From a virus (lineage: Duplodnaviria; Heunggongvirae; Uroviricota; Caudoviricetes): a DNA stretch of 22,496 nt. Position 1 is the first letter of the stretch; each line of letters starts with the position of its first letter. The notes under the pieces are model-generated. The model was not told the origin of the DNA, did no database searches, and saw only the letters and a program-made list of their open reading frames with translations. A program made the position numbers and the translations under genes. Of this stretch, positions 2,927 to 17,886 are shown piece by piece. Location: the IMG/VR virus record IMGVR_UViG_3300000301_000103; one strand, written 5' to 3'.

Positions 2927-2986
2927 AGTTTTCCTTTGAAGATAGTTGGACAGTTTCTGCAAAAGGCGGCTAATGCCGCCTTGAAA

Positions 2987-3295
2987 TCATTTACAACGAT
3001 CAACCATTCGTTTGATCTGTTTGGCATGGTTTTCGGGATTACCCGGAGTCGACCATACGCTCATTTGGNNNNNNNNNNNNNNNNNNNNNNNNNNNNNNNN
3101 NNNNNNNNNNNNNNNNNNNNNNNNNNNNNNNNNNNNNNNNNNNNNNNNNNNNNNAGTTTTGTGTTCACCTTCTGGATTACCGCATCGCAGTCTGCAAAAA
3201 CAATGTGCAGCACCACCAGCAGCTACCCAGATCCAGCCTTTACTTAATGCATAGTCAATGGCTGCTTGAATATGCTTATTCGGATGTTGCTTCAT
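2987..3295 (-). CDS. Small hypothetical protein, first gene of a two-gene module (interrupted by N-run 3069-3154)
   Basis: ATG at plus 3293-3295 preceded by GGAGG and a sigma70-like promoter; N-term MKQHPNKHIQAAIDYALSKGWIWVAAGGAAHCF. Middle of the protein is hidden by Ns. Confidence 0.5.
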   Translation of the reverse strand: MKQHPNKHIQAAIDYALSKGWIWVAAGGAAHCFCRLRCGNPEGEHKTXXXXXXXXXXXXXXXXXXXXXXXXXXXXXQMSVWSTPGNPENHAKQIKRMVDRCK

Positions 3296-3312
3296 TCGCC
3301 TCCGATAATAGT

Positions 3313-3342
3313 ATTCTATTCACAGTGTTGACATCTGTCAAC
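3313..3342 (-). promoter_or_regulatory. Sigma70-like promoter with overlapping palindromic operator GTTGACATCTGTCAAC
   Basis: Minus strand reads TTGACA - 17 nt - TAGAAT - 9 nt - GGAGG - CGA - ATG. The 16-bp palindrome at 3327-3342 overlaps the -35. Confidence 0.55.
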
Positions 3343-3529
3343 GGCGACTGAATTTCATCCGTTCATGCCACACCCCCATCCATCTCATGTATGTGACCTA
3401 AAGATGGTCAGCACAGCTTACCAAAATAAGACAACTAATTATCTTCGGTGATCTCAATATCTTCCCCTGAACAAAGTTGACATGACGCCATAAACCCGTT
3501 CTCTGTTTGATATAATTGATACAGATTTT

Positions 3530-3548
3530 ATAAGTAGGAACCTATTAG
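3530..3548 (+). promoter_or_regulatory. Recurrent imperfect palindrome site 1 (ATAAGTAGG-AA-CCTATTAG)
   Basis: Member of a six-copy intergenic motif family (half-site about ATAGGTA / TACCTAT); overlaps a possible TTGATA-16 nt-TATAAG promoter. Confidence 0.4.
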
Positions 3549-3549
3549 A

Positions 3550-3981
3550 GTGAACACTGATATTTTTTCTAAAATCATGGCCGATCTGGAGTTCGACCGC
3601 GACAACCTTGAGGAAGTATGGCGTAAACAGCCACGGCTTTTAATGGAGTATGGGTCAAAACTAGCGCAGGCAGATCGAGATGTCGCAGAGGCAAAACTTA
3701 ACCTTGAAGCTGTTGAAGCAAAGCTATACGACACAGAGCGTAAGAACTTGAGTATGAACGGCATTAAGTTCAACGAGTCTGTACTGGACGCTAAGGTTAA
3801 AACAAACCCACAGTATCTGTCTAAACGGCAGAAGTTGGATGAAGCACGGCACATCGCAGACATATACAAACATGCTGTCGCCGCCTTTTCGCATCGCAGA
3901 GACATGATCGTTCAGGCGTCAAAGATGGCCATCGTTGAATTAGAGCGATTAGGCTCTGAACGCTTTATTACTCCCCGTTGA
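3550..3981 (+). CDS. Hypothetical protein, possibly a UvsY-like recombination mediator (143 aa)
   Basis: GTG start 9 nt after AGGAA. Size and scattered residue pattern (e.g. SVLDAKVKTNPQY) resemble T4 UvsY as I recall it; this is a weak by-eye similarity. Confidence 0.5.
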   Translation: MNTDIFSKIMADLEFDRDNLEEVWRKQPRLLMEYGSKLAQADRDVAEAKLNLEAVEAKLYDTERKNLSMNGIKFNESVLDAKVKTNPQYLSKRQKLDEARHIADIYKHAVAAFSHRRDMIVQASKMAIVELERLGSERFITPR

Positions 3982-3994
3982 TTTTTGATAGATA

Positions 3995-4016
3995 ATAAGT
4001 AAGTACTGATCTATCA
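3995..4016 (+). promoter_or_regulatory. Recurrent imperfect palindrome site 2 (ATAAGTAAGTACTGATCTATCA)
   Basis: Same motif family, 83 nt upstream of the SSB start codon. Confidence 0.4.
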
Positions 4017-4098
4017 TTTAACAGCTCGAAAGAGCCACGAATGAACGAAAGCCCAACGCGCATAGCGCCATCGGCCAAATCACAACAAGGAGAAACAC

Positions 4099-5203
4099 AT
4101 GTCTAAGACATTACTTGATTTGCTTAACAAAACTCGTGAAGACATTGCCGCCAAACGTGGCAACAACGTTGATCTGACTCGCTTAAAAGACGGCGTCAAC
4201 TATATCCGCATCTTCCCGAATAAAGACGACCCAAACGGTAAGTTCTTCCAGACTTTCGGTATGCACTACGTTAAGTATCAGAACGAGGAAGGTAAAGAAG
4301 CAACCAACGCTTATATTTGTGAGCAACATACTCACGGTCGCGCTTGTCAGCTATGCGAAATGGTGATGGAAGGTCGCGCTCGTCACAAGGGTAACAAAGC
4401 AATGGAAGAACGCATCGGTCAAATGCGTGCCACTCCTCGCTACCTGGTCAACGGCATTCTTTCTGCTCGTGAGGATTTCGCAGATGCTGAGAAATGCCAG
4501 TTAATCGAGCTGCCGTCTACTGTATTCGATGATATCTGCAAAGCAATCACCGAAGACATCGCTGATGATATCGGCAATCCACTGAGCAAAGAGGAAGGCT
4601 ACGCATTCCTGATTAAACGTACTGGCTCTGGTCGCGATACCAAATATGACGTCTCGCCTAAGCGTAAAGTCTACAAAGGCGATATCGAAGATAAATTCTG
4701 GAACACCCAGCATGATCTGATCGCATACGCAAATCAGGCTGATGAAACTCGTCTTCTGTCGACAGTTCGCACTATGGGTCGTCTGATTGGCATCGCTGCA
4801 CCAACTGCCGCAGCATCTGCACCAGCAATTTCCTCAACCGCGAAAACATCGGCTGCGGCACTACCTGGATTTGGCTCTGTCACTGGTCATACAGAAGGAG
4901 CGACGGCTGTAGCAACCGCGCACACACCGGCTTCTGAACCAACCAGTCTGGTTGATGAAGAAATCCTCCGTGCCGTTGAAACTGAATTTAAACCAGAGGC
5001 AAGTTCCGCTGCCGTTGCCGTATCAGTCAAAGAGTCTGAAGCAGTCGCAGCGACATCTGTAGCAACCGCATCTGCGACGGAAGATNNNNNNNNNNNNNNN
5101 NNNNNNNNNNNNNNNNNNNNNNNNNNNNNNNNNNNNNNNNNNNNNNNNNNNNNNNNNNNNNNNNNNNCTGGATGACCTACTGAGAGAGCTGGACTCTCTG
5201 TAA
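4099..5203 (+). CDS. Single-stranded DNA-binding protein, T4 gp32-like (zinc-binding), with Ala/Ser/Thr-rich linker and acidic tail
   Basis: ATG preceded by AAGGAG; YIRIFPNKDDPNGKFF resembles the gp32 N-terminal region; Cys-x3-His-x5-Cys-x2-Cys (CEQHTHGRACQLC) fits the gp32 zinc site pattern. After N-run 5086-5167 the tail LDDLLRELDSL ends at TAA 5201-5203 in a different frame. Confidence 0.7.
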
Positions 5204-5219
5204 TCCCATTACGTGACCA

Positions 5220-5250
5220 GTAAGGCGTCTACGGACGCCTTACTTTTTGG
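5220..5250 (+). terminator. Rho-independent terminator (GTAAGGCGTC-TACG-GACGCCTTAC + TTTTT)
   Basis: Perfect 10-bp stem, 4-nt loop and T5 run 17 nt after the SSB stop. It lies inside the ORF-track ORF 5213.., which argues for the later FEN start. Confidence 0.7.
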
Positions 5251-5263
5251 AAGGAATGTACCG

Positions 5264-6363
5264 GTGAATTATCTCTTCGTAGATGGCAATAGCCTGGGCT
5301 ATTACCACCAACAATCTGACAAATTGCACAACGGCGAAATGGAAGTACAGGCTGCTTTCGGCTTTGTTANNNNNNNNNNNNNNNNNNNNNNNNNNNNNNN
5401 NNNNNNNNNNNNNNNNNNNNNNNNNNNNNNNNNNNNNNNNNNNNNNNNNNNNNNNNNNCGTTATGCCTCCATCCTCCATGCCCGGCCTATGATTCTTTGG
5501 GATGGATTTAGTGACAAGCGTCGCGACTTTTACCCGGACTACAAAGCAAATCGCGACGACGATCCTGATATGAAAAAGATGAAGGAAGGCTTTGCTATCC
5601 AGAAGCCATACATCCTCAAAATGATGACCGCGCTTGGAGTTACCCAACTCATTGCAAAAGATGCAGAAGCGGATGATCTGGCCGGGCTGCTGGTATCCCG
5701 CATGGCACCGCAGCCAACCGTTGAACACATCTATCTGTTAACAGGCGATAGCGACTGGCTTCAGTTAGTTCGTGAAAACGTAAGCTGGGTAAGCCTGCGT
5801 GAAGACGCCAAAAACAAGCAGGTTAATTTTGAGCAATTTGCGGAGCTGACAGGATTCGCCACGCCTCGCGCATTTTTGGAAGCAAAAGCATTACAAGGCG
5901 ATAAATCGGACAACATTAGCGGTGTTGGTGGCATTGGTGCTGGCGGTGCGAAAGAGCTGCTGCATGNNNNNNNNNNNNNNNNNNNNNNNNNNNNNNNNNN
6001 NNNNNNNNNNNNNNNNNNNNNNNNNNNNNNNNNNNNNNNNNNNNNNNNNNNNNNNNNNCAACGATGGTACGCGGCATCAACGACGGCTCAATCGTGGTTG
6101 ACAAAGGACGCCATAAGACCGCCTTCAACAAACTAGCGAAGAATGCCTTCAACGAGAAAACAGGCTGTCGAATGCTCGAAGCGTTCAAGAGAAACATCAC
6201 GCTAATGAACCTGATTGAGACGAAGTTTCCGCCTACCGAAATCGAAACAATCAAAGGCAATCGTGACGTGAAAGCATTCGAGCAACTGTGCTACGAGCTG
6301 AATTTCCGTTCGTTCCTTGAAGACCTTGAAGTGTTTGTTCTTCCATTCGAAAGGTATTGCTAA
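5264..6363 (+). CDS. 5'-3' exonuclease / flap endonuclease (T4 RNase H / T5 D15 family)
   Basis: GTG start 8 nt after AAGGA gives MNYLFVDGNSLGYY. Motifs YKANRDD, EADDLAGLL, TGDSDWLQLV and H3TH GDKSDNISGVGGIG are present. N-runs 5370-5458 and 5967-6058 interrupt it; the frame changes after the second; stop TAA 6361-6363. Confidence 0.8.
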
Positions 6364-6704
6364 TGCTTAAATCGATTATTAATGGCGCTACAACCACCCC
6401 CACCCAACTGGCAAAAGAGATTGTCTTTTATCACGGTGAGTACGCTGTCATCGCACTGCCGTCAATTCTAGGCGCTGCCGGAATGAAAGCGACAGATCGC
6501 GAGTTTGGATTAGTCAGCGAGCAGGTCGTAAAAATCCTCGCTCGTGTATCCAGACTCCTTAATCACGATGCGATTGTATTCGACGAATCCGCCGCTTTAA
6601 NNNNNNNNNNNNNNNNNNNNNNNNNNNNNNNNNNNNNNNNNNNNNNNNNNNNNNNNNNNNNNNNNNNNNNNNNNNNNNNNATCAACGAAACAAAAGGAGC
6701 CTGA
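6363..6704 (+). CDS. Hypothetical protein (about 110 aa, C-terminus uncertain because of N-run 6601-6680)
   Basis: ATG overlaps the FEN stop (TAATG), preceded by GAAAGG; no recognisable motifs. Confidence 0.45.
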   Translation: MLKSIINGATTTPTQLAKEIVFYHGEYAVIALPSILGAAGMKATDREFGLVSEQVVKILARVSRLLNHDAIVFDESAALXXXXXXXXXXXXXXXXXXXXXXXXXXXINETKGA

Positions 6705-6706
6705 TC

Positions 6707-9437
6707 ATGGCAAAAGGAAAATCCGCACTGGCACTTGCTCTGAAAAAGAAAATCGGTAGCAACGACGAAATTCAGAAAGTAACTCATTGGATTGACACAG
6801 GCTTTCCTCCGTTAAACAAAGCTATTTCCGGTCGTTACGATGGCGGTTTCCCATGTGGTCGTATCGTAGAAGTATTCGGGCCACCAAGCGCGGGGAAATG
6901 TGTTACCGCAGACACCATGCTGCTGACGGAGCGTGGAATGGTAACAGTGAAAGAGTTGTTTGAGATTGAAGGGTACAAAGCGACATGCACTACTCGCGAT
7001 GTAGAGCATAACGTTGGACTCATCAATGAAAATGGCGTGATAGAGAAGACCTCACACCTGACATGGAACAACCGTCGCAAATTCAAGCGTATTAAGCTGG
7101 CATCAGGCGGTTATATCGAGGCTACGTTCCGTCACCCAATCCGTGTGGTTGACGACTTAGGTAATGTCGTCTGGCGACATGCTGAAAAAATCAGTGTAGG
7201 CGACACGATTCCTTCAATGGTTGGCACACATCAATTCGGCGATCAGCACCTGGATGCCAATATCGCAAAACTGATGGGCTATTTAATTGCTGACGGATAC
7301 GTGGCCTCTGAAAATTCAGTGAATTTTTCTAACACAGATCCTTTCATCAAGGATGAGTACTACCGCCTCATTTCGCTGGTATCAGACAAGATGCCAGTTG
7401 CGAGAAAACATAACGGCTCGGAAGACCATGTGCTGTTTAGCAAAGAGGTGCGTTCGCTGCTTTTTAAAGAATATGGTCTGGAGTATGAGAAAGCTGCTGG
7501 CAAGCAGGTTCCGTTGAGTGTGCGTCGCGCCAATAGCGAGGCTCAAATTGCATTCCTTCGCGGCTACTTTGAGCTGGAATGCCACGTCAATGATGGTCGC
7601 TGCATTGAGGTTGTGAGCGCGAGTGGGCTGCTGCTACAGCAAATTCGCCTCATGCTCCTGAATCTGGGGATTACGTCAACTATCTCTGAAAAACACGTCG
7701 CGGGTTATGAAAATACATATTACCGGCTGTCATTCAGTGGCTCTAATTACGACCTTTTTCTGTCAACGATTGGTTTCGAATCTCCGGCACGTTTATCAGT
7801 GGCAACCAAACGGGACATTGGTTTTGACCGCACTTACTCAGGCTATGTTCCGCACATCAGCGGCTTAGTGAAATCACTCNNNNNNNNNNNNNNNNNNNNN
7901 NNNNNNNNNNNNNNNNNNNNNNNNNNNNNNNNNNNNNNNNNNNNNNNNNNNNNNNNNNNNNNNNNNNNNNNNNNCACCCGTGAAGACTACGCTCTGGTAG
8001 ACCACGTTATTGGCCGCGGCGATCGTGTCGGAATAGACAAACTGCGAGAAATCTATGTCTCCTTCATTGGCAGAAAGAATCGTTTTAACGAGCATCTGTT
8101 TGCACAACTGGCAGCGGTAATTGGCTCTAACTTGTTCTACGACGAAGTCGTGGCTATTGAGGAAGGTGAAGCACCAACGTTCGACGTAGCGATGCCGGAA
8201 ACACACTCNNNNNNNNNNNNNNNNNNNNNNNNNNNNNNNNNNNNNNNNNNNNNNNNNNNNNNNNNNNNNNNNNNNNNNNNNNNNNNNNNNNNNNNNNNNN
8301 NNNNNNNNGCCACAACACATTCCTTGCAACAGCAGCGATGATCTCCGCTCAAAAACAAGATGGTCTGGCGGTATTCCTCGATCATGAAAACAGTTTTGAC
8401 GTTGGCCTGGCTGCAGCCAATGGCCTGAACGCAGATGAGGATGACGGTCAGTGGGTATACAAGCANNNNNNNNNNNNNNNNNNNNNNNNNNNNNNNNNNN
8501 NNNNNNNNNNNNNNNNNNNNNNNNNNNNNNNNNNNNNNNNNNNNNNNNNNNNNNNNNNNNNNNNNNNNNNNNNNNNNNNNNNNNNNNNNNNNNNNNNNNN
8601 NNNNNNNNNNNNNNNNNNNNNNNNNNNNNNNNNNNNNNNNATCGTGGCTGACTCTCTTGCGTCTATGGTTCCGAACTCCAAAGCCGAGAAGTTCGAAAAG
8701 ATGGCTGAAGGCACAGCCAAAGACAAAGATCAGCTAAACATGAACGACAATACGGCACTGGCTCGTGCGACGAGNNNNNNNNNNNNNNNNNNNNNNNNNN
8801 NNNNNNNNNNNNNNNNNNNNNNNNNNNNNNNNNNNNNNNNNNNNNNNNNNNNNNNNNNNNNNNNNNNNNNNNNNNNNNNNNNNNNCACGCAAATACAACG
8901 CCTGCATCATCTTCTTGAATCAGGTTCGCACAAAAATCGGTGTAATGTTTGGCGACCCTACTACGTCGCCAGGTGGAGATTCACCGAAGTTCTACGCTTC
9001 TGTACGTATCCGTCTTGGTGCATCGGTGATGAAGGATGGTAAAGAGAAGATCGGCCAGGACGTAGGCGCAGAATGCATCAAAAACAAAGTTGCACCACCG
9101 TATGGCAAATGCACCTGGAAATTCTACTTCGATCCTACTCGTGGCCTCGACGTTATCGAGTCGCTCGTCGAGTACATGCTGGAAGAAGGATACCTGCCAA
9201 AGAACGCCAGCGGTCGAGTAGAAATTGGTGACAAGAAATACACCAAATCACAAATCGTCGAGATGTATCGGGAGAAGCCACNNNNNNNNNNNNNNNNNNN
9301 NNNNNNNNNNNNNNNNNNNNNNNNNNNNNNNNNNNNNNNNNNNNNNNNNNNNNNNNNNNNNNNNNNNNNNNGCGGCTTTACAGGCAATCGACGACCGGAG
9401 ATCAAAAGACAATCCCACCGAGTCAGTAGAAGAGTAA
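6707..9437 (+). CDS. recA: RecA-family recombinase interrupted by an intein
   Basis: ATG preceded by AAAGGAG. Walker A GPPSAGK is followed directly by an intein; C-extein has IIFLNQVRTKIGVMFGDPTTSPGGDSPKFYASVRIRL, the RecA core signature. Four N-runs lie inside the gene and frames shift across three; stop TAA 9435-9437. Confidence 0.8.
6899..8316 (+). other. Intein with LAGLIDADG homing-endonuclease domain, inserted in the RecA P-loop
   Basis: Starts with Cys right after GPPSAGK (CVTADTMLL, block A); TxxH block B (EATFRHP); LAGLIDADG-like LMGYLIADGY and IAFLRGYFELE; block F-like TFDVAMPETH; ends HN followed by Thr (cac aac aca at 8311-8319). N-runs 7880-7974 and 8209-8308 lie inside. Confidence 0.7.
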
Positions 9438-9441
9438 ACAC

Positions 9442-9468
9442 AAGGCGTCCACAGGACGCCTTTTTTAT
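9442..9468 (+). terminator. Rho-independent terminator (AAGGCGTCC-ACA-GGACGCCTT + TTTTAT)
   Basis: 9-bp perfect stem and T-run 5 nt after the recA stop. Confidence 0.7.
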
Positions 9469-9480
9469 CTCTTGAAAATA

Positions 9481-9500
9481 TATAAGTGCTTACTTATCAT
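9481..9500 (+). promoter_or_regulatory. Recurrent imperfect palindrome site 3 (ATAAGT-GCTT-ACTTAT); also fits TTGAAA-17 nt-TATCAT
   Basis: Inverted hexamers ATAAGT/ACTTAT; TTGAAA at 9472-9477 and TATCAT at 9495-9500 are spaced 17 nt. Confidence 0.45.
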
Positions 9501-9529
9501 TTTCACATAACAACCACATAGGAAAACAC

Positions 9530-9730
9530 ATGATCAAAATCTATCTATTGGCAGTAGCCACAGGCCTTTCAGTGGCTCTCATCTACGGATTACTGGTTCC
9601 GTCGCTGATTTCTGCAAAGAGTGATTTGGCCGTCATGCTTGGAGTTCTCGTTGGTTTTGGCGCTCCAGTAATCGGTCTTATTGGTGGTCGTAAGTTTATT
9701 AACTCATTAATCAAAGCAAAGGGGAAATAA
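9530..9730 (+). CDS. Small membrane protein (66 aa, two predicted transmembrane helices)
   Basis: ATG preceded by AGGAAAACAC; almost entirely hydrophobic with a short basic tail; stop is 3 nt before the SPFH gene start. Confidence 0.6.
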   Translation: MIKIYLLAVATGLSVALIYGLLVPSLISAKSDLAVMLGVLVGFGAPVIGLIGGRKFINSLIKAKGK

Positions 9731-9733
9731 GTA

Positions 9734-10643
9734 ATGAAGAAAGGTTTACTTGCAGTTGCTCTGGCGGCTATTTGCACAATGGGTCTTACTGGCTGTGATC
9801 GCGTGGAGCCTGGATACGTTGGCATCAAAGTAAACAAATTAGGTGAAGACAAAGGGATTGGTGAAGTGGTTGGCGTTGGTCGCCAATGGACAGGTCTTAA
9901 CACCGAACTTTACGTATTCCCGACCTTCAAACAAATGAAGACCTACGACGAGCCGTTCACATTCCAGATGAGTGACGGTACTGCTATTGGTCACAAAATT
10001 GGCGTTGCGTATCTGGTTAATCGTGACAAGGTAACTACGGTGTTCCAGACCTATCGCAAAGGCGTAGACGATATCACCGNNNNNNNNNNNNNNNNNNNNN
10101 NNNNNNNNNNNNNNNNNNNNNNNNNNNNNNNNNNNNNNNNNNNNNNNCGATATCACCGAATCAGATCTGCGTCAGAAAATTGCCGACTCTCTAAACCGTT
10201 TGGCCAGCCGTATGACCACTGACTCATTTATCGACGGTGGTAAGGCACAATTGCTGGACAACGCACTGAAAGATATTCAGAAAGAGATGTCTCCGGTTGG
10301 TATTGAGGTACTGAGCCTGTCATGGGTTGGAAAGCCTGATTACCCAAAAACTGTCATTGAATCTATTAACGCCAAAGTAACGGCTAACCAGCGTACTCTG
10401 CAACGTCAGCAGGAAGTTGAACAACGTAAAGCTGAGGCGAATATGCTACGTGAACAGGCTAATGGTGAAGCTGATGCTATCCGTGCTCGTGCGCAAGCAG
10501 AAGCAGACGCCATTCGTCTGCGCGGTGAAGCTCTGCGTCAAAACCCGAACGTTATGGAACTGGAAGCCATCAATAAATGGAATGGCCAGTTACCGCAGTA
10601 CATGACTCAAGGGGCTAACACTCCTTTCATTACAGTGAAATAA
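9734..10643 (+). CDS. SPFH/Band 7 (prohibitin/HflC-like) domain lipoprotein
   Basis: Signal peptide with lipobox LTGC; Band-7-like core and Ala/Glu/Arg-rich coiled-coil tail (AEANMLREQANGEADAIRARAQAEADAIRLRGEAL). N-run 10080-10147 interrupts it and is flanked by identical 10-mers GATATCACCG. Confidence 0.7.
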
Positions 10644-10659
10644 CTCCCCTAAAAAGTTC

Positions 10660-10688
10660 AGGCGTCCAGTTGGACGCCTTTTTTATCG
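10660..10688 (+). terminator. Rho-independent terminator (AGGCGTCC-AGTT-GGACGCCT + TTTTTTATC)
   Basis: 8-bp perfect stem and T6 run 17 nt after the SPFH stop; same stem sequence as the terminator at 9442. Confidence 0.7.
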
Positions 10689-10734
10689 CAATTATCTTAT
10701 TAAGAAAACAATTTGTTTAAAAGGATAAGAAAAC

Positions 10735-11238
10735 ATGACAGCTATTAAGAAACTCTACGATGCCGCAAACGTGGCTCTGGATGTTATTGATGATGAAGTA
10801 GCAAAAGGCTTTCCTGAACCTGATTGGGCGCATCAGCTACGAAACGCTATCGCAGAAATGACCCCACCAGATCCAACCCCCGACGAGACAGACTGGCAGC
10901 GATTCATCCGTATGTACGCTCAGGAAATAGGTCCAACGCCAACGGCAGAGCAGGCAATGCTGCTGAAATACTTCAAAGAGGCGGGAGAGGATTTACCAAT
11001 TGATGACTCAGCATATTGGTTCCACNNNNNNNNNNNNNNNNNNNNNNNNNNNNNNNNNNNNNNNNNNNNNNNNNNNNNNNNNNNNNNNNNNNNNNNNNNN
11101 NNNNNNNNNNNNNGTAAGTATGACGTGATATTCACACAAGGCATGGGAAGCAAAGATATGGTTGTGTGGCATCTACTCCATATAGACACAGCCGTTGACA
11201 GAGTTATTGAACAGTTTTTCCCTAAACAAGAAGATTGA
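10735..11238 (+). CDS. Hypothetical protein (about 167 aa; N-run 11026-11113 inside)
   Basis: ATG preceded by AAAGGATAAGAAAAC; protein-like composition on both sides of the gap in the same frame. Confidence 0.55.
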   Translation: MTAIKKLYDAANVALDVIDDEVAKGFPEPDWAHQLRNAIAEMTPPDPTPDETDWQRFIRMYAQEIGPTPTAEQAMLLKYFKEAGEDLPIDDSAYWFHXXXXXXXXXXXXXXXXXXXXXXXXXXXXXXKYDVIFTQGMGSKDMVVWHLLHIDTAVDRVIEQFFPKQED

Positions 11239-11293
11239 TCGCCTATTCATAACTAACAAAATAAGTAAACACTAACCACAAAAGGAAAAACAC

Positions 11294-11569
11294 ATGAGAG
11301 TTTTAGTTCGAATCGTTACCAGCACTGTCTATGACGTGTTTCCACTTTTTATGATCAAAGTCGATGGCCTTAACGACGAAGAAACTGACGCGCTGATCCA
11401 GCGTACTCTTGTTGAATATACAGGTCATGACGCTGATTCAGTGATGGTTGATGATGATGGTGTTTGTTGGCATAACGGCAACTGTTGGTACGTAGAAGAG
11501 ACTCAACAAATCAGTGATGAAGATGCCGCACATCTTGAGCGTATTTTAAGCATCAGCACTTTTGAGTGA
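11294..11569 (+). CDS. Hypothetical acidic protein (91 aa)
   Basis: ATG preceded by the conserved AAAAGGAAAAACAC leader; no recognisable motifs. Confidence 0.55.
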   Translation: MRVLVRIVTSTVYDVFPLFMIKVDGLNDEETDALIQRTLVEYTGHDADSVMVDDDGVCWHNGNCWYVEETQQISDEDAAHLERILSISTFE

Positions 11570-11587
11570 GTTTACAGTAAAATTTAT

Positions 11588-11609
11588 ATAAGTTAGTATC
11601 TACCTATCA
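11588..11609 (+). promoter_or_regulatory. Recurrent imperfect palindrome site 4 (ATAAGTTAGTATCTACCTATCA)
   Basis: Same motif family, in the intergenic region after the 11569 stop. Confidence 0.4.
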
Positions 11610-11788
11610 TGAAGATTTTTATTGAATACTTGTTACTCATCGTTTCAATAGCTTTTGTCATCGACTGCATTTTCACCGGTGTCATTCGTAAAGTCTTTTC
11701 CCCGGTGAACGACGTAGTCATAAACGCTTTGGCTATCGTGCTCGTATTTAATTCAGCATTTGATGTAATCAAAGAGGTGGCAGCATGA
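11609..11788 (+). CDS. Possible small hydrophobic membrane protein (59 aa)
   Basis: ORF MKIFIEYLLLIVSIAFVIDCIF..., stop overlaps the next ATG (ATGA); no Shine-Dalgarno and the start sits inside the palindrome motif, so it may not be translated. Confidence 0.25.
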   Translation: MKIFIEYLLLIVSIAFVIDCIFTGVIRKVFSPVNDVVINALAIVLVFNSAFDVIKEVAA

Positions 11789-12120
11789 AGGCCATCCCAT
11801 TCGCTCTGTTGTTCCTTTCCTCGATCGTTGTGGCCGACACCACTGTTTATCAGTGTGAAATGTCTGTAGCCGACGTTAAGAATGGCGCTCTTACCGACGT
11901 CATAAAAGCACCATATGGAGCGATGGTCGTAGACAGCGGCGACCAGTTCTATGTTGTGCGTGACGATCGAGTGTTGTCATCCCCATATCTCACAAATCGT
12001 AATGGCAAATTAACCGGCGTCGGAGAAGACCACTTCGTATACAACAAATACAAGGGCTTCTATGGCGTTCACGCTTCTCAGCAAAGCTACCTTTTCGATG
12101 ACTGCAAGGAGGTTGGATAA
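11785..12120 (+). CDS. Secreted or periplasmic hypothetical protein (111 aa) with N-terminal signal peptide
   Basis: ATG preceded by AGAGGTGG; signal-peptide-like N-terminus MKAIPFALLFLSSIVVA. Confidence 0.6.
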   Translation: MKAIPFALLFLSSIVVADTTVYQCEMSVADVKNGALTDVIKAPYGAMVVDSGDQFYVVRDDRVLSSPYLTNRNGKLTGVGEDHFVYNKYKGFYGVHASQQSYLFDDCKEVG

Positions 12121-12332
12121 TGGCATTAACACTGGCAGGTCTGGAAATCGAGAAAACAAGCGGCTACTGGCGTGCTAAGGGTTTCAAGCAGCCTGGCATT
12201 CTTGAGCGTCTGGAACGTGAAGATGGGTATATCGTCCACCAGCGGCGTGAATGGCGTATGTACGATCCAGAAACAGGAAAACTGACTACAAAAGCCGGAA
12301 CACTTTGGGGCCTGTTGAAGAAAATACACTAA
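12120..12332 (+). CDS. Hypothetical basic protein (70 aa)
   Basis: ATG overlaps the upstream stop (TAATG), preceded by AAGGAGG. Confidence 0.5.
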   Translation: MALTLAGLEIEKTSGYWRAKGFKQPGILERLEREDGYIVHQRREWRMYDPETGKLTTKAGTLWGLLKKIH

Positions 12333-12342
12333 TAGCACCAAC

Positions 12343-12820
12343 CACTGCGGTGAGTAGCCAGCTCACCGCATTCGTATCAGCTCATTATCCACTGTGGTCT
12401 GCAGTCCTCTCTTCCTACATATCTGCTAACCACTGTAGCGAGTAGACAGCCTTTCATTCGCATCAAACAACCACTATGGTGAGTATTGGAGTGAGATGTC
12501 CAGCGGGTATCCACTATGGTGAGTAAGCCTTTGCTGTTTTCAGTGGATATCCACTCGCCACAGTGGATACGCTCAAAGATGAGGGCGACAACAACCACTA
12601 TAGACAGTAAATTTTCCAAGATACCCAGTGACCACTAACCTCGCAGCCCTTGTTTCATCAGTGTTAGTGATCACTAACATTTGATTCAGTATTTGCATTC
12701 TACTGCCTACAGTGGTTATCAACAGATAACGATACTCACTATAGTGGATAGCGAATTACAGATATAAGTAAGGCTCACTACAGTGGATAGTGAGCCTTAC
12801 TACTAACTACAGTGGTTGGG
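12343..12820. repeat. Iteron-like array downstream of repA: about 12 sites with core CCACT(A/G)T(A/G)G / CTA(T/C)AGTGG in both orientations, plus perfect palindromes
   Basis: CCACTATGGTGAGTA at 12471 and 12511; variants at 12343, 12430, 12595; CACTATAGTGGATAG at 12736; CACTACAGTGGATAG at 12777; palindromes GTGGATATCCAC (12543-12554) and GTTAGTGATCACTAAC (12663-12678). Confidence 0.7.
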
Positions 12821-13876
12821 CTATTTGCGAGTCTTTGCCTTGCGCAACTCTTCGAGAAGCGCCAGTTCTTCTTTACTCAACATGACCATTTTGCCTTCTT
12901 TTTCGTCAGGCACAACGTCGATAATGTCATCTTGATTCTCATCTGGGAGGCTATATTCCGTCTCATCATTATCGATTTTTGTTGATATTTGTGCCTGGCG
13001 TAACTTTGGCCGCCTATAGTGGATGACGAAGTAGACCGAGTTTCCGCGCTTAACTTCCGTGTAATCGAGATATCCTATCTCTCGCAGCTGTTCCATAGCC
13101 TTTCTTACCGTCGCATTCTGAGTAATAGTGCGACTTGTCAGATTAAGTCTGGCGCGTAAACGGGCTAGTGATATTGGTGCCGGATCAGGCGGCAAACTTT
13201 CAATAAAAGTATAAAGCGCCTGAGCGGATTCTTTTCTTGAGAGTTCGTTTATAGCCCGGAGTTGCAGAAGAACCTTTTTGTCGAACTGGTAGAGTTCGAA
13301 AATCTTGGGATCTGCTTTCAGTTCGACCGTATCGTGCTTGACACTATATTTTGCCGTTTGCACAAGATGCGTTACGTAAAACTCATCAGAGCCTTTGCTA
13401 CGGAACGAGATGGTATTTGTGGCAATACGGCTTAGCGAACTGTCCAGGCGTTTGCGTAACTTCGCTGATGACCTGGCGGTCGGAATGCCACACAGCCTTA
13501 CAAACTCAACGAACGGCAACGTGACAGTATCGCCAACGACCTTGTGTTTGGCAAACGCGTGGATTATTCCCACCCACGTTTTAAAGTCGTTATCCATATC
13601 AAGCCGAAGGCCAGAGATCCTTATGTCTTCGTACCCTTCGGCTTTTGCCAGAGACAGCTGTTTGAGTTCAGCAGAGGCATCCATAGAGACCATTTGCCCC
13701 TTTCTTCCTCTGGATGTCGATTTCAGCGTCGGAACGAAGAGGCCCAGACGCATCAAAGCAACAGGCTGAACAGTGTTATTAGTGTTAGGAACCAACGTAA
13801 CAACTTCGCCTGTCTTTTTATCTGTTTCTGAAAATGCTTCAACGATCGCTATGTTTTTATTGCCGTTTTCGCTCAT
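12821..13876 (-). CDS. repA: Plasmid-type replication initiator RepA (iteron-binding, Rep_3 / RepFIB / P1 RepA-like)
   Basis: 351-aa minus-strand ORF flanked on both sides by iteron arrays; two winged-helix-like halves and general resemblance to RepE/RepA initiators as I recall them. The ATG at 13874-13876 has only a weak Shine-Dalgarno. Confidence 0.75.
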
Positions 13877-13921
13877 TCCAAATGTCTCTTGTTATTCGAC
13901 GGCTTTGGTGGCCTTTGCTGA

Positions 13922-14036
13922 TTACAGTGGATAGTAGCACTCATCACAGCGGTTATCCTACCGTCTATAGTGGTTTTTCTCCTCTCTATAGTGGTTGCTT
14001 TGCTCCCTATAGTGGATTATTCGCTCTCTATAGTGG
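13922..14036. repeat. Iteron cluster A: six direct repeats (core CTATAGTGG) at 21-22 bp spacing, immediately upstream of repA
   Basis: Core 9-mers start at 13922, 13944, 13965, 13986, 14007 and 14028; the last four are exact CTATAGTGG. Confidence 0.8.
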
Positions 14037-14040
14037 ATAT

Positions 14041-14320
14041 CGATCATGTCTGAAGGCAGATGGCGCAACGGTTTGAGGTGGGCGGGGATCTTATTGGGTC
14101 TTTATGGGTCTCTTTGGTTCTCTTTGTGATCTGAATTACTGGATCGGGCCTGTGGATAAAATCAGAGGATTTCAAGAACAGGTAACTCTACTCTTCTGTG
14201 GATATTTAAGGACATAAGAATCATGACTAAGAGTAGAGTTTAAAATATATCTATGTATATCAGTATGTTAATGAAGAATTAAGTCATTAAGTTATCCATA
14301 AAAGACAATGTGCTCTACTC
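14041..14320. other. Putative origin spacer: degenerate GATC/GGTC block (14081-14145) and AT-rich segment containing a 12-bp inverted repeat (14184-14195 / 14229-14240)
   Basis: The block resembles the GATC cluster at 14464-14517 but with GGGTC/GGTTC in place of several GATC; AACTCTACTCTT and AAGAGTAGAGTT are exact reverse complements; 14200-14300 is AT-rich. Confidence 0.4.
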
Positions 14321-14321
14321 T

Positions 14322-14416
14322 CTACAGTGGATATATACAGCTCTCCAGAGTGGTTGTTTTACTCTTCATAGCGGTTATTCAGCTCTCTACAGAGGTTTCT
14401 TTGCTCTCCATAGTGG
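14322..14416. repeat. Iteron cluster B: five degenerate direct repeats (CTACAGTGG, CCAGAGTGG, TCATAGCGG, CTACAGAGG, CCATAGTGG) at about 21 bp spacing
   Basis: Repeat starts at 14322, 14343, 14366, 14387, 14408, same orientation as cluster A. Confidence 0.7.
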
Positions 14417-14463
14417 ATGGCAACACCCTTTCAGACCAGTAACCGCAACGGCTAGAGGCGATC

Positions 14464-14517
14464 GGGGATCTCTTTGGATCTTCTATTTGATCTTACTTGG
14501 GATCTCTTATTTGGATC
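14464..14517. promoter_or_regulatory. Cluster of five GATC sites at roughly helical-turn spacing (possible Dam-methylation-sensitive origin element)
   Basis: GATC at 14467, 14477, 14489, 14501 and 14514 within TTGGATCT-like repeats. Confidence 0.5.
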
Positions 14518-14618
14518 TATCCAGTGGATAACTGGGATAAGTAAAACAGGCAAATGCAGATTAAGGTATGCCTAATGAGTTATCGTAGCATCGGCCAATA
14601 ACTACTGAAAAAACGATT

Positions 14619-15263
14619 ATGGATCTAAAACGCACGCGCTGGGTTCGTCGTCTTGAGGACGGCTCCTACACTATCGAATCAAATTCCAACCTGAATAAGC
14701 AGAAGTTGCTTTGTGACATCTGCGGTATAGCGGCGAAGTGCCCGATCTACGAAACCAGAATTAAACTTGATAAGGCTGGTGTGAATTTTCATTTAAACAG
14801 TTGCATCAGGTACGTTCCATTGCTCGCATTTCGTAAACCGATCATCGGATTGGATGCACCCTACTTCAACACACTCCGTTCAGGTGTGACGTGGCAAGAT
14901 CGTTTATCACCAGACAAGCTGATTTGCCTTGTATCCGCAGACACAGGGAAAATCATCCGTTTTGGGAAAGTAGACAAGGTTTACTCAGGCCCAGTAGACG
15001 AAATGTTGCGGAAACACAGCCGGTTTAATCATCTCTGTATGGGTGGTGAGAAAATCGAGAAGGTAGAAGAAGTGATCCGCAAATCCTACGGACACTTCCT
15101 GACCAAAGATAGCCTGCTCACCGCAATCTACATCAGACATGTAAAACGTGAGTTCGACCTCGAATACCACAGTGAAGAAGAGCTTAACCTTGTTGACCCA
15201 CGTCCAAAAGCTGGCGTCATAAGCATAAACGCAGCGCGTAAAAAGCCCACTGAGACGTTTTAA
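14619..15263 (+). CDS. Hypothetical protein (214 aa)
   Basis: Long ORF in an otherwise empty interval; weak RBS; no recognisable motifs. Confidence 0.5.
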   Translation: MDLKRTRWVRRLEDGSYTIESNSNLNKQKLLCDICGIAAKCPIYETRIKLDKAGVNFHLNSCIRYVPLLAFRKPIIGLDAPYFNTLRSGVTWQDRLSPDKLICLVSADTGKIIRFGKVDKVYSGPVDEMLRKHSRFNHLCMGGEKIEKVEEVIRKSYGHFLTKDSLLTAIYIRHVKREFDLEYHSEEELNLVDPRPKAGVISINAARKKPTETF

Positions 15264-15338
15264 ACGTAATCTCAGGGTTTAACCGAGGCATAAAATATGG
15301 TGCATTAGAAAGACACTGAGGGCTTTTAGGATTAATAC

Positions 15339-15851
15339 ATGAGTGAATTTTATTCAAGGGCAGCAACTGTGACAGACATGCCTTTTATCATGGCTGAGTT
15401 CGAGGACGGCGCACGCAAAGGTCACTTCTACGAAGAGATCCTCACATCAAAGGGGGGGTAAAACCTTTGAGCAGCAGACCAGACTGGCAATCAAGACGAA
15501 CGAGCGGGGCCAATACTCCGGGCATTTTATCTACATCCTGCTGCATCGTTCTGATGACAAAAAGTAGGACTAATCTGGTTCTGTGCCGCACTCGATCCGA
15601 CTGGCGCACCTTGACTTGAACTCCGTGCCGTCAGTATTGTCAAAGAGCTTCGCGGAAAAGGCTATGGGTCAATGCTGGTGTCCGACATGATCGCATCAAA
15701 CCCTAGTCAGCCGACGATGGCAAAGNNNNNNNNNNNNNNNNNNNNNNNNNNNNNNNNNNNNNNNNNNNNNNNNNNNNNNNNNNNNNNNNNNNNNNNNNNN
15801 NNNNNNNNNNNNNNNNNNNNNNNNNNNNNNTGCTGTTTCGCGACCCAAAAT
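15339..15851 (+). pseudogene. Disrupted GNAT-family N-acetyltransferase
   Basis: Frame 0 MSEFYSRAATVTDMPFIMAEFEDGARKGHFYEEILTSKGG stops after a G7 run (15452-15458). It continues in frame +1 (KTFEQQTRLAIKTNERGQYSGHFIYILLHRSDDKK, TAG 15565), then frame 0 (GLIWFCAALDPTGAP, TGA 15612), then LELRAVSIVKELRGKGYGSMLVSDMIA with a GNAT motif-A-like R-G-x-G-x-G. N-run 15726-15830 follows. Confidence 0.55.
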
Positions 15852-15875
15852 AAAAAGCACCCCATACGAGGTGCT
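15845..15875 (-). terminator. Minus-strand rho-independent terminator (AGCACC-loop-GGTGCT with T-run on the minus strand)
   Basis: Plus strand reads AAAATAAAAAGCACC CCATACGA GGTGCT; on the minus strand the stem is followed by TTTTTATTTTGG, 10 nt after the lipoprotein stop. Confidence 0.55.
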
Positions 15876-15884
15876 CCTGAAGAA

Positions 15885-16388
15885 TTAATCACAAGTCGTT
15901 TTGCCCGTGCCGTCTGGGTACACGATTGATTCGCACGACTTGCCATTCAAGAAGCTGTAGCTGCGAATAGTACCGTCCGGATCGCGTTCTGTGTAAGACT
16001 CCAGCTTCTTCGGATCAGCGTTCTTACGGCGCACTTCTTTCAGCTCATATTGGGCCTTGTACATCTCCTTGTAGGCTTCCTCTATGCGTTTCATTTTGAT
16101 CTCCTTTGCCTCTTTGCTGCCCAGATAAGCGGCCATTTCAAGATCACAGTTGAACCTGATTTTTGGGAATGAAGGCGCGTATCTACCCATGACTTTGGTT
16201 AAATCATTGTCGTTAGAGACATAATAGGCATGGCTTCCACACAATTTGTCGGCTCTGTCTTGGGCAATTGCTACGCTTGAAGTGGAGTAAATATCAACGT
16301 ACCCGCCAGCTGACTTTTCATCTTGAGGTGGTTTTGGTACGCATCCGATCAGAGCAATGGCCATCGTCCCTATAATTACGCGTTTCAC
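15885..16388 (-). CDS. Lipoprotein (167 aa), function unknown
   Basis: GTG start (plus 16386-16388) 7 nt after AAGGAG; N-terminus MKRVIIGTMAIALIGC carries lipobox LIGC. Confidence 0.65.
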   Translation of the reverse strand: MKRVIIGTMAIALIGCVPKPPQDEKSAGGYVDIYSTSSVAIAQDRADKLCGSHAYYVSNDNDLTKVMGRYAPSFPKIRFNCDLEMAAYLGSKEAKEIKMKRIEEAYKEMYKAQYELKEVRRKNADPKKLESYTERDPDGTIRSYSFLNGKSCESIVYPDGTGKTTCD

Positions 16389-16481
16389 CGTCAGTTCTCC
16401 TTTTTCGTTTGGTTGTCATCATTAAGTGACTGCGATTATAGAGTGGCTTGTAACATCTAGAAGTCTTTGCTGTCCATAAAA

Positions 16482-16501
16482 ATAGGTATTCACTTACCTA
16501 T
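16482..16501 (+). promoter_or_regulatory. Recurrent imperfect palindrome site 5 (ATAGGTA-TTCACT-TACCTAT, perfect 7-bp arms)
   Basis: Exact inverted 7-mers, about 110 nt upstream of sbcD in the divergent intergenic region. Confidence 0.45.
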
Positions 16502-16614
16502 GAATTTGCCATAATCATGTGTCTGTGAACATTCTTAATGGCCGTGTTATCTGGATTGTTCGCCTCTCAAACACACTTAATATCTGTATCAAAATAACCA
16601 CAAAGGAAAAACAC

Positions 16615-17886
16615 ATGACTTTGCCATACGGCGTCATTTCTGACTGCCACTACCACAAATGGGATGCGTTCTCCACGACGAACGCTGAGGGGCTTAACTC
16701 CAGACTTGAAATACAGTTGGAAGCAACGAAAGAAGCAGCCATCGCCATGAAGAAGGCCGGTTGTAAGTACATGTTGGTTGCCGGTGATACATTTCACGTC
16801 CGAGGAACTGTGTCCCCTTCTGTTTTGCATTACGTAACTGAAACGTACAAGTGGATTATCAACGAGCTTGATCTGACAGTAGTAATGCTGGCCGGTAATC
16901 ACGATCTTGAAACCAACGATTCAGTATATAGCGCCAACGCAGCAGCATCGCTGAGTTCTATCGGCGTGGTAATCGTATGTGGCAAACGCCCACACTCAAT
17001 AAAAATTGGTGATGTGACTGTCCACCTGATTAGCTGGCGTAACAATCATGCGGAGCTTATCAGCGATCTGAAAGCATTACGTAAGAGCGTAGAAGGTGAT
17101 AATCATGACGTTGTTATCCATACATCCATTAACAAAGCCATTCCAACAATGCCTGACGTCGGTATCGATGCGCAGGAGTTAAAGGATATCGGCTTTCGTC
17201 TCGTGCTTAGTGGGCATTACCACAACCACAAAGAGGTCATTCCTGGAGTTATCAGTGTCGGTGCGCTGACCCATCAAAATTGGGGAGATGTTGGATCTCT
17301 GGCTGGTTACATGATCGTAAACCCGGACGGCAGTTTCAGTCACTACGAAACCAGTGCGCCTAAATTCATTAACCTGGAAGATTATGTTGCCGATGACCAA
17401 ATTCGCGGCAACTACGTGCGTTTCCGCGCCGTAATTGAGAACGATGAAGAAGGCATTAAGTACCAGAACATCCTCAAAACAATGGGTGCAAAAGGTGTCG
17501 TGTGCAACTTCATCCGTAAGTCATCAATGATGGAAGGGACAGCAAGCACAACGGAAACCAGCAAAATCGATAGCCTGGGAGAGTCGGTATCTGCTTATTG
17601 CAAGATTGTCCACGATACTGACGGCGGATTTGATCTGAGCAAGTTGGATATTTTGTGTCAGGAAATCCTCACNNNNNNNNNNNNNNNNNNNNNNNNNNNN
17701 NNNNNNNNNNNNNNNNNNNNNNNNNNNNNNNNNNNNNNNNNNNNNNNNNNNNNNNNNNNNNNNNNNNNNNNNNNNNNNNNNNNNNNNNNNNNNNNNNNNN
17801 NNNNNNNNNNNNNNNNNNNNNNNNNNNNNNNNNNNNNNNNNNNNNNNNNNNNNNNNNNNNNNNNNNNNNNNAAGGAAATCCCGTAG
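16615..17886 (+). CDS. sbcD: SbcD/Mre11-family nuclease (calcineurin-like phosphoesterase)
   Basis: ATG preceded by AAAGGAAAAACAC; phosphoesterase motifs DCHYH, GDTFH, GNHD and GHYHNH. N-run 17673-17871 hides the C-terminal region; the end is either TAG 17884-17886 or, in another frame, TGA 18006-18008 overlapping the sbcC start. Confidence 0.8.
   Translation: MTLPYGVISDCHYHKWDAFSTTNAEGLNSRLEIQLEATKEAAIAMKKAGCKYMLVAGDTFHVRGTVSPSVLHYVTETYKWIINELDLTVVMLAGNHDLETNDSVYSANAAASLSSIGVVIVCGKRPHSIKIGDVTVHLISWRNNHAELISDLKALRKSVEGDNHDVVIHTSINKAIPTMPDVGIDAQELKDIGFRLVLSGHYHNHKEVIPGVISVGALTHQNWGDVGSLAGYMIVNPDGSFSHYETSAPKFINLEDYVADDQIRGNYVRFRAVIENDEEGIKYQNILKTMGAKGVVCNFIRKSSMMEGTASTTETSKIDSLGESVSAYCKIVHDTDGGFDLSKLDILCQEILXXXXXXXXXXXXXXXXXXXXXXXXXXXXXXXXXXXXXXXXXXXXXXXXXXXXXXXXXXXXXXXXXXXKEIP

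Follow-up and report, generated by a model that had tools for sequence, protein, structure and literature searches.

A shared A/C-rich leader at the start codons of early DNA-metabolism genes in SSU5/pHCM2-type phage-plasmids, a candidate translation-initiation element

Four genes on a 22,496-nucleotide (nt) stretch of viral DNA (IMG/VR record IMGVR_UViG_3300000301_000103; hereafter the window, meaning the whole stretch at its full length) are preceded by nearly identical leaders that run into their start codons. The window belongs to an SSU5/pHCM2-type phage-plasmid of Escherichia coli, and comparison with related elements revealed that the leader is real, selected and family-specific, and that it is a variant of known translational enhancers or operators, not a new class of system. 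Based on sequence comparison and on predicted RNA structure, we favour with moderate confidence the interpretation that it serves as a translation-initiation leader peculiar to this family, which would give strong, structure-independent initiation to the first cistrons of early units. Full-text literature searches returned no description of such a leader, or of translational control, in SSU5-, pHCM2- or pMT1-type elements.

The window represents the early DNA-metabolism arm of the element. Its positions 3900-12500 are 99.5% identical to the E. coli plasmid pEcoFMU073332c (NZ_CP017847.1), a complete 113-kb relative whose 112 annotated starts were all tabulated with their context. Strain LF82 carries an SSU5-like phage-plasmid, Escherichia phage Cyrano, that is 98% identical to the window; for Salmonella phage SSU5 the figure is about 80%, and more than 800 PLSDB records match the window region. 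An ortholog table was compiled from elements of E. coli, SSU5, two Kluyvera, Buttiauxella, Yersinia pestis (pMT1), Enterobacter, a typical Klebsiella and a divergent Klebsiella. The last is plasmid pC714_2 (CP067502.1), in which the single-stranded DNA-binding protein (SSB) is 42% identical and the intergenic DNA cannot be aligned. A search of genome contigs with the SSB returned close relatives only (82-83% identical), and the deeper relatives were obtained by tblastn on plasmids and phages. The window contains several N-masked stretches, and no leader site touches an N run.

Leader copies in the window and across the element

An earlier note, made from the letters of the window, had reported near-identical leaders before the genes of the SSB, a small membrane protein, a 91-amino-acid (aa) protein and sbcD. 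All four were found where that note placed them (Table 1), and its gene identities hold: the SSB belongs to the gp32 family (Pfam PF08804, E=1.7e-66, full-length domain, on an unmasked ortholog), although its pairwise match to T4 gp32 is marginal (E=0.064, in the Zn-finger region); SbcD is a metallophosphoesterase according to Pfam; the 66-aa product is a PHROG membrane protein; and the 91-aa product has no assigned function. The 8-mer shared by the four leaders, AACACATG, occurs exactly four times in the 22.5-kb window, each time on the + strand and each time ending in the start codon of a real gene, against 0.94 occurrences expected, and none of 100 dinucleotide shuffles reached four. A relaxed scan of the window (purine-G-purine, 2-9 nt, CAC, start codon) yielded no additional start with a real open reading frame (ORF).

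The four-gene framing proved too narrow, since the leader stands before 11 starts in NZ_CP017847.1, seven of them beyond the window. Its consensus reads 5'-(C)CACAAAGGAAAA(A)CAC-AUG-(A/U). When the pattern AAGGAAAA(A)CACATG was searched with at most two mismatches, NZ_CP017847.1 gave 12 matches, all on the same strand, of which 11 fall at annotated starts, the four window genes among them. The twelfth lies in frame with the primase gene, at an ATG that precedes its annotated start by 66 nt. The further carriers encode a DnaB-like helicase, a hypothetical protein, a TerB-like protein, NrdB, DnaE and a CobS-like ATPase, the latter with ACGC instead of ACAC before its ATG. On the gene strand of the same plasmid AACACATG occurs ten times, against once on the opposite strand; of these sites, eight coincide with annotated starts and a ninth with the ATG upstream of primase.

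A consensus-free census, in which the triplet at -3 to -1 and the hexamer at -6 to -1 were tabulated over all starts of three genomes, gave the same picture. No triplet is more frequent than CAC in any of them: it stands at 10/112 starts of the E. coli element (3.0 expected), 13/107 of SSU5 (4.2 expected) and 21/105 of the divergent Klebsiella element (5.3 expected). AAACAC leads the hexamers in each (8, 9 and 11 starts, respectively). In the divergent Klebsiella element AAGCAC comes second with seven starts, and all remaining hexamers occur at most twice. Across the elements the leader is found at about 10-20% of starts. A generic ribosome-binding site, the alternative that the earlier note had itself named, would be present at most genes; the leader is present at 11 of the 113 starts of NZ_CP017847.1 and at none of the 29 in the late block.

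The twelfth match deserves separate mention. In all three lineages the primase leader lacks the GG of the Shine-Dalgarno (SD) sequence (CCACAAAAGAAAA(A)CACATG) and keeps the remainder of the leader; therefore, the conserved element is not simply an SD sequence. The short ORF that begins behind this leader lies at 3567-3633 in NZ_CP017847.1, at 35837-35905 in SSU5 and at about 30199-30250 in CP067502.1. It is fused in frame to primase in E. coli (22 codons) and in frame in pC714_2 (16 codons), and in SSU5 it forms a separate upstream ORF (uORF) of 23 codons that ends near the primase ATG. It is thus either a mis-annotated start or a coupling uORF. Similarly, the CobS-like AAA ATPase gene of CP067502.1 (around 13825) has an in-frame upstream ATG behind aaaaggaaaacac, and its true start probably lies 12 nt upstream of the annotated one.

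Conservation of the leader

The ortholog table showed that (A)ACAC beside the AUG is kept at CobS, dnaE, SSB, the membrane gene, the gene of the 91-aa protein (orf91), sbcD and nrdB; at the SSB of the SSU5 group AAUAC occupies the leader position. Other parts drift: the SD may be AAGGA, GAGGG, AGGAG or AGGT, it lies 5-8 nt from the AUG, and the 5' flank changes as well. Against this variable spacing, CAC stays fixed at -3 to -1 in more than 40 sites. Identity over -8 to -1, compared among the E. coli, SSU5 and typical Klebsiella elements, is 0.85-0.95 for leader genes against 0.66-0.70 for other genes, and the -45 to -21 flank of the leader genes reaches 0.42-0.67. The strongest evidence for conservation is the leader set of pC714_2, where AAAGGAAA[A/G]CACATG precedes about 21 genes despite an SSB of 42% identity and unalignable intergenic DNA, and where all 15 occurrences of AACACATG are on the gene strand. 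Some carriers are lineage-specific: the typical Klebsiella element alone has the leader at CobT, and the divergent one alone has it at RecA, UDG and a ruvC-like gene. As judged from these alignments, the leader is under purifying selection.

Outside the family the motif is not seen. In lambda none of 72 starts is preceded by CAC and in T7 one of 57; neither genome has a recurrent hexamer, AACACATG occurs 0-1 times per genome, and the most enriched upstream 6-mers of T7 are all SD variants. It is likewise absent from two syntenic relatives, an Acinetobacter phage-plasmid and Pseudomonas phage nickie, a comparison in which host and lineage are confounded and for which ten Aeromonas records were counted only. 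In phage nickie, 7 of 49 early genes (0.39 expected) have a different C/A-rich element, TCAAACAG, immediately 5' of the SD. This nickie leader, (a)aTCAAACAG(c)GAG, is found for example at 10530, 12705, 23978 and 18010, includes cobT, cobS and sbcD among its genes, and follows an intergenic gap each time. The deeper trait may be a C/A-rich leader on gap-preceded early genes, of which the AUG-locked AAACAC would be the enterobacterial form. An exact 14-mer scan of viral contigs gave, among the matches listed, mostly single scattered hits, near chance for the size of the collection; the exceptions among those listed are a 111-kb contig with two loci and a single locus that contains two copies. 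Taken together, the motif is non-random, locked to strand and start codon and confined to one class of genes; it is better conserved than its flanks, persists across deep divergence, and is lacking in lambda and T7.

Properties of the leader RNA

The leaders are poor in predicted structure. The predicted minimum free energy (MFE) of the -30 to +20 region is -3.06 kcal/mol for leader starts against -6.18 kcal/mol for other starts (p=9e-4), and the predicted mean unpaired probability over -18 to +6 is 0.64 against 0.47 (p=1.5e-4). Leader regions are 73% A+C against 50% elsewhere, with 1.7-2.1 U between -22 and -1 as opposed to 5.2-5.8. A position matrix shows positions -16 to -1 nearly without U and G only in the SD; A occupies -5 to -7, -4 is a purine and CAC fills -3 to -1. 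Neither G nor C occurs at +4 (0/10, p=0.06, and 0/20, p=0.006). The SD itself is a modest AAGGA placed 7-8 nt from the AUG, a spacing close to the optimum, and is flanked by CCACA on its 5' side and AACAC on its 3' side, and one to three ACA triplets lie between -20 and -1.

An extended complement of the leader was found nowhere else in the element, and GTGTTTTCC occurs once, within dnaE. The idea of an antisense or small RNA (sRNA) partner was dropped, there being no extended complement, and an 8-nt complement in the 5' untranslated region (UTR) of the late operon not being conserved.

Genes that carry the leader

Every copy of the leader is preceded by an intergenic gap of 55-464 nt, and several directly follow terminator hairpins. 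In NZ_CP017847.1, 47 non-late genes have 50 nt or more of intergenic DNA before them, and 11 of these carry the leader; none of the 15 close-packed non-late genes does, nor any of the 29 late-block genes, which are largely structural. All 11 leader genes are non-structural. In the divergent Klebsiella element, CAC precedes 1 of 29 late starts against 20 of 76 other genes (p=0.007), and the sole late-block case is a GTG start without the leader. Because the leader always follows an intergenic gap and is never seen on close-packed, translationally coupled genes, its carriers are probably the first cistrons of transcription units. Seven leader genes checked in the transcriptome of the LF82 lysogen are at background (normalised values of 5-13; PMC9928086, S1 table), and they would therefore be repressed early or lytic genes.

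The leader does not belong to one promoter type. At the SSB gene, the promoter-like site (Table 1) overlaps the palindrome ATAAGTAAGTACTGAT (3995-4010), and this architecture is kept in the alignment, the divergent Klebsiella element included; at the membrane gene the corresponding site implies a 5' UTR of about 23 nt, nearly all of it leader. Upstream of both genes the TATCAT -10 overlaps a palindrome of the type ATAAGTnnnnACTTAT, and the palindrome upstream of sbcD is probably an operator or promoter element as well. A composite promoter-operator-leader cassette was considered and rejected, as the leader occurs with the ATAAGTnnnnACTTAT-type palindrome, with a second, AAACAAnTTGTTT-type palindrome or with neither, and at a variable distance from the -10. 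Since it is independent of the palindromes and variably spaced from the -10, the leader behaves as an independent module at the level of translation.

Proposed function and alternative explanations

SSU5/pHCM2-type phage-plasmids of Enterobacteriaceae set this leader before a subset of their early DNA-metabolism genes, those for helicase, primase, DnaE, the gp32-type SSB, the CobS-like ATPase, SbcD, NrdB and a few small genes. Since its bases, the GG of the SD excepted, are almost all A or C, the RNA should not fold on itself and, we propose, would allow strong, structure-independent de novo loading of 30S subunits on promoter-proximal cistrons; proteins of replication, recombination and nucleotide supply would then be made together once the repressed early promoters fire. 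The leader would thus act as a translational enhancer. Its low U content may also limit attack by RNase E, in view of the known preference of that enzyme, and ACAA repeats standing in for the SD would explain the primase copy. There is precedent in Salmonella (PMC3879156), where ACA motifs close to the SD enhance translation: without them, expression of yifK fell by up to 90% and that of dppA by a factor of more than 100, and repeats of ACAA can support initiation that does not depend on an SD. Because one sequence spans the AUG in every copy, the genes form a potential post-transcriptional regulon.

Several points weigh against this proposal. Were the leader simply the strongest initiation region available, the highly expressed late genes, lambda and T7 would be expected to use it, yet they manage without it (0/29 late-block starts, 0/72 and 1/57, respectively), and only 11 of the 47 gap-preceded early genes carry it. 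Furthermore, the published ACA enhancers are flexible in position, whereas here CAC is locked at -3 to -1 and -4 is always a purine; efficiency alone offers no explanation for the locked CAC, which suggests an additional constraint. Finally, the structure and accessibility figures are predictions. The earlier note had suggested coordinated translation or a shared RNA-level control. The first part of this suggestion fits a leader that is non-generic, absent from the 29 late-block starts, under purifying selection and predicted to be unstructured, and such a leader leaves room for the second part. No regulator was found.

The locked CAC leads to the first alternative, which we regard as possible but doubtful: a sequence-specific RNA-binding protein, of the phage-plasmid or of the host, would bind AARCAC-AUG and switch the early mRNAs off (or on) jointly in the course of the lytic cycle, in the manner of T4 RegA, which acts on about 30 early mRNAs. 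The factor would read this sequence on 10-20 early mRNAs of replication, recombination and nucleotide metabolism and time or throttle their translation at the switch from plasmid to lytic growth; it could be encoded by the element and lack similarity to RegA, or could be the gp32-type SSB itself. As in RegA operators, the invariant part of the leader adjoins and includes the AUG, and RegA sites are likewise unstructured with a 5' poly(A) tract (PMC3014915). The targets are early replication genes in both cases, CAC holds its position and varies less than the SD, the primase copy has the motif but no SD, and late genes, lambda and T7 do not have the motif although they use the same ribosomes. 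Against this, six-frame ORFs contain no detectable homolog of RegA, CsrA, Hfq or ProQ (phmmer E>=0.05, a search limited by the accuracy of its query sequences), the best score of T4 RegA against 1629 six-frame ORFs of at least 35 aa being E 0.084, although a structurally analogous protein unrelated to RegA in sequence is possible. The only candidate annotated as 'RNA-binding', the ASCH-like protein, was discarded because its Pfam match is sub-threshold (E=0.15). In addition, RegA operators are A+U-rich while the leaders are A+C-rich, and a full-text literature search gave no experimental hint of temporal translational control in the SSU5-type family. The cleavage consensus of RegB, GGAGRAYARAA, did not fit the leaders when compared by eye.

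The earlier note had also pointed to autoregulation by the SSB as in T4 gene 32, in which excess gp32-type SSB would coat the unstructured leaders of its own and other mRNAs and repress them. We consider this unlikely. Parts of the analogy stand: the SSB is of the gp32 family with a Zn-finger region, T4 gene 32 has the same AAAGGAAA SD, the same 7-nt spacing and an unstructured tract, the leaders are predicted to be unstructured, and in the SSB 5' UTR (MFE -18.1, z=-2.26) predicted structured elements at -75 to -25 of the start are followed by an unpaired run across the ribosome-binding site. The A+U tract with UUAAA repeats and the specificity to SSB do not. In T4 a pseudoknot lies at the 5' end of the operator, ~67 nt upstream of the AUG; here no conserved pseudoknot or hairpin was found (the folding tool cannot predict pseudoknots), and the hairpin region, near-invariant in close relatives, is absent from the divergent Klebsiella SSB, which has the leader nonetheless. 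Rfam returned nothing for the SSB 5' UTR or elsewhere in 3300-17000 at E<=1, its only hit in the window being a cspA thermoregulator outside that interval. The unpaired run is about 25 nt, A/C-rich and almost without U, as opposed to a 30-40-nt A+U tract with UUAAA repeats (in T4, uuaauuaaauuaaauuaaaaaggaaauaaaaAUG), and the membrane-gene mRNA would offer only its leader of about 23 nt. Binding by gp32 is not sequence-specific and so leaves the invariant CAC unexplained, and even among T4-like phages the gene 32 operator is not universal, RB49 being an example (PMC3014915).

Still less probable is a reading of the leader by host regulators, the sRNA GcvB, CsrA or the distal face of Hfq, which would tie early translation to host physiology. 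GcvB targets are C/A-rich, ACA-containing enhancers beside the SD (PMC3879156). Predicted duplexes with GcvB R1 reach -15.3 for leaders against -12.3 kcal/mol for other starts (p=0.017), but this difference is small and expected for any C/A-rich RNA, and several non-leader starts score as well or better; GcvB pairing was rejected on these grounds. The distal face of Hfq accepts A-R-N repeats such as AGG-AAA-AAC, and CsrA recognises A(N)GGA sites preceded by ACA. The ACA-purine-GGA arrangement of the leader presumably resembles the consensus that SELEX gave for CsrA, yet each leader has a single GGA where CsrA usually needs two. None of the three regulators explains the AUG-locked CAC.

Least probable of all, and only a slight chance in our estimate, is that the near-identity reflects history, with module-boundary sequences of ordinary ribosome-binding function spread by recombination or gene conversion, or inherited by common descent: the early region is mosaic (over the first 50 residues CobS is 62% and DnaE 98% identical between the E. 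coli and SSU5 elements), the element encodes its own recombination machinery and the repeats are short (about 20 nt), but a neutral sequence of 16-20 nt would not persist at 10-20 sites among unalignable intergenic DNA and a 42%-identical SSB, positions -8 to -1 are more conserved than the flanks and than the same positions of other genes, and no mosaic junction coinciding with a leader was seen in the ortholog table.

Significance

Phage-plasmids of the SSU5/pHCM2/pMT1 type are common in E. coli, Klebsiella, Salmonella, Enterobacter and Yersinia pestis, and their gene regulation is essentially unstudied. The leader provides a handle for defining the early DNA-metabolism expression class, and it corrects the start-codon annotation of primase and, in some records, of CobS. 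It is also a natural, compact cassette, predicted to be free of structure, whose invariant CAC context is unexplained by current rules of bacterial initiation. Moreover, it bears on whether temperate phage-plasmids use T4-like translational regulons. If the doubtful RegA-like regulon were true, it would be the first outside T4-like virulent phages, and it would lie in a clinically widespread plasmid family that includes pMT1 of Yersinia pestis, pHCM2 of S. Typhi and plasmids of Klebsiella and E. coli.

Other features of the window

On the + strand the window carries, in order, the 3' end of dnaE, a UvsY-like gene, the gp32-type SSB, FEN, an apparently intein-containing RecA, the small membrane protein, SPFH and small ORFs, and further on the ASCH-like gene, SbcD, SbcC, a RuvC-like gene and the start of nrdA; the - strand carries a cspG-like gene, hicAB and repA. 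The features that bear on the leader are listed in Table 1.

Table 1. Leader copies, leader genes and associated features in the window.
Feature	Position	Strand	Description
Leader copy 1	4081..4101	+	CACAACAAGGAGAAACACATG; tCACAACAAGGAGAAACAC-ATG of the gp32-type SSB gene; kept in orthologs
Leader copy 2	9515..9532	+	CACATAGGAAAACACATG; CCACATAGGAAAACAC-ATG of the 66-aa membrane protein gene
Leader copy 3	11277..11296	+	CACAAAAGGAAAAACACATG; CCACAAAAGGAAAAACAC-ATG of the 91-aa ORF
Leader copy 4	16599..16617	+	CACAAAGGAAAAACACATG; CCACAAAGGAAAAACAC-ATG of sbcD
gp32-family SSB gene	4099..5175	+	C-terminal part masked; PF08804 on unmasked ortholog; 'SSB T4 gp32-like' in Cyrano
66-aa membrane protein gene	9530..9730	+	phrog_1130 'membrane protein'; first cistron of membrane/SPFH pair
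91-aa acidic protein gene (orf91)	11294..11569	+	phrog_2209, function unassigned in PHROG
sbcD-like nuclease subunit gene	16615..17886	+	Metallophos, Pfam E=8.5e-10; annotated so in relatives; masked run, 3' end uncertain
Promoter-like TAGATA-17-TATCAT	3989..4017	+	upstream of SSB; implies 5' UTR of ~85 nt
Two small predicted hairpins, SSB 5' UTR	4024..4075	+	GCUCGAAAGAGC at 4024-4035; second at 4051-4075; then unpaired A/C-rich run
Terminator-like hairpin and T run (intrinsic)	9442..9462	+	after recA, just 5' of the membrane-gene promoter
Promoter-like TTGAAA-17-TATCAT	9472..9500	+	overlaps palindrome ATAAGTGCTTACTTAT (9482-9497)
Degenerate copy of the SSB/membrane-gene palindrome, ATAAGTAAACACTAAC	11261..11276	+	adjoins leader copy 3; ortholog site listed in NZ_CP017847.1
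Palindrome ATAGGTATTCACTTACCTAT	16482..16501	+	~115 nt upstream of the sbcD start; related to the SSB/membrane-gene palindrome

Two families of dispersed palindromes were observed. The first, TAAGTAnnTACTTA or TAGGTA..TACCTA, has at least 20 sites genome-wide, intergenic and in both the early and the late arms. These palindromes may be the operator set of the prophage repressor, a dispersed arrangement that we take to resemble the scattered C1 operators of P1. The second, AAACAAnTTGTTT, usually aGAAAACAAnTTGTTTaa, is found in the window at 10706-10718 and at 17 strictly intergenic sites in NZ_CP017847.1, mostly 18-150 nt upstream of starts and on one strand; it is seen in SSU5 and in the divergent Klebsiella element too, and looks like a dispersed operator or promoter element for a DNA-binding protein. 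A further arrangement, in which a TAAGT/TACCTA palindrome adjoins an ATG without an SD (tataagttagtatctacctatcATG), occurs in the window at 11585-11611, where a 59-aa ORF starts at 11609, and in NZ_CP017847.1 at the starts of Dam, thyA, portal and ParB, which suggests very short-leader or leaderless mRNAs for palindrome-abutted starts.

The recA-like gene (6707-9475) measures about 2.3-2.8 kb, compared with 1.08 kb in SSU5. It appears to encode an intein-containing RecA, since close relatives annotate it as a hint-domain or LAGLIDADG homing endonuclease protein. On the - strand, a cspA thermoregulator 5' UTR (RF01766, 185.7 bits, full-length) lies at 1793-2211 before the CspG-like cold-shock gene, and SSU5 has none at the corresponding position. 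The HicB/HicA toxin-antitoxin pair (2363-3295, -) sits directly upstream of the UvsY-SSB unit; in the LF82 lysogen HicB and HicA reach 141 and 294 over a background of about 7 and are among the few clearly expressed Cyrano genes (PMC9928086). The ASCH-like gene (14619) has no recognisable SD in any lineage (ctgaaaaaacgattATG), and its Cyrano counterpart is about 4-fold above lysogen background. Between this gene and sbcD, positions 15300-16400 are extra DNA relative to NZ_CP017847.1 and Cyrano, both of which lack it. The extra DNA includes a 167-aa lipoprotein-like ORF (15885-16388, -) with an equivalent in SSU5 (SSU5_072) and in the Enterobacter element; the difference is a local mosaic, and the sbcD leader is unaffected by it.

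Comparison with known systems

The T4 gene 32 operator shares with the window a gp32-family gene behind AAAGGAAA, a 7-nt spacer and AUG, with an unpaired tract downstream of structured RNA. It differs in its long A+U tract of UUAAA repeats, which is not present here, in its pseudoknot, of which the folding and Rfam searches gave no conserved counterpart, and in being specific to the SSB mRNA, whereas the leader is a multi-gene element on 11 to about 21 genes. The AAGGAG leaders of T7 late genes are likewise one type of initiation region reused at many phage genes; the shared part in T7 is the SD, at most genes, whereas here it is the spacer and the 5' flank, in a gene-class subset, with the SD less conserved. 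With the T4 RegA operators, as defined in PMC3014915, the leaders have in common a short, A-rich sequence, predicted to be unstructured, at the SD-AUG or AUG of early and replication mRNAs, including a 5' A-tract. RegA operators are, however, A+U-rich and poorly conserved (AAAAUUAUG-like), while the leaders, with 1.7-2.1 U in -22 to -1, are A+C-rich and far more uniform; no RegA homolog was found here, and repression of many early mRNAs late in infection is a trait of T4 RegA. The C/A-rich ACA enhancers of the GcvB targets yifK, dppA and gltI offer the same unstructured ACA/CA-rich flank of the SD, also in Enterobacteriaceae hosts (PMC3879156), and ACA/CA-rich motifs beside the SD, in RNA predicted to be unstructured, are what the leaders contain. 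Those enhancers are gene-specific and independent of exact position, whereas the leader of the SSU5/pHCM2-type phage-plasmids is a near-fixed sequence of 16-20 nt, placed before 11 to about 21 genes with its CAC locked to the start codon.

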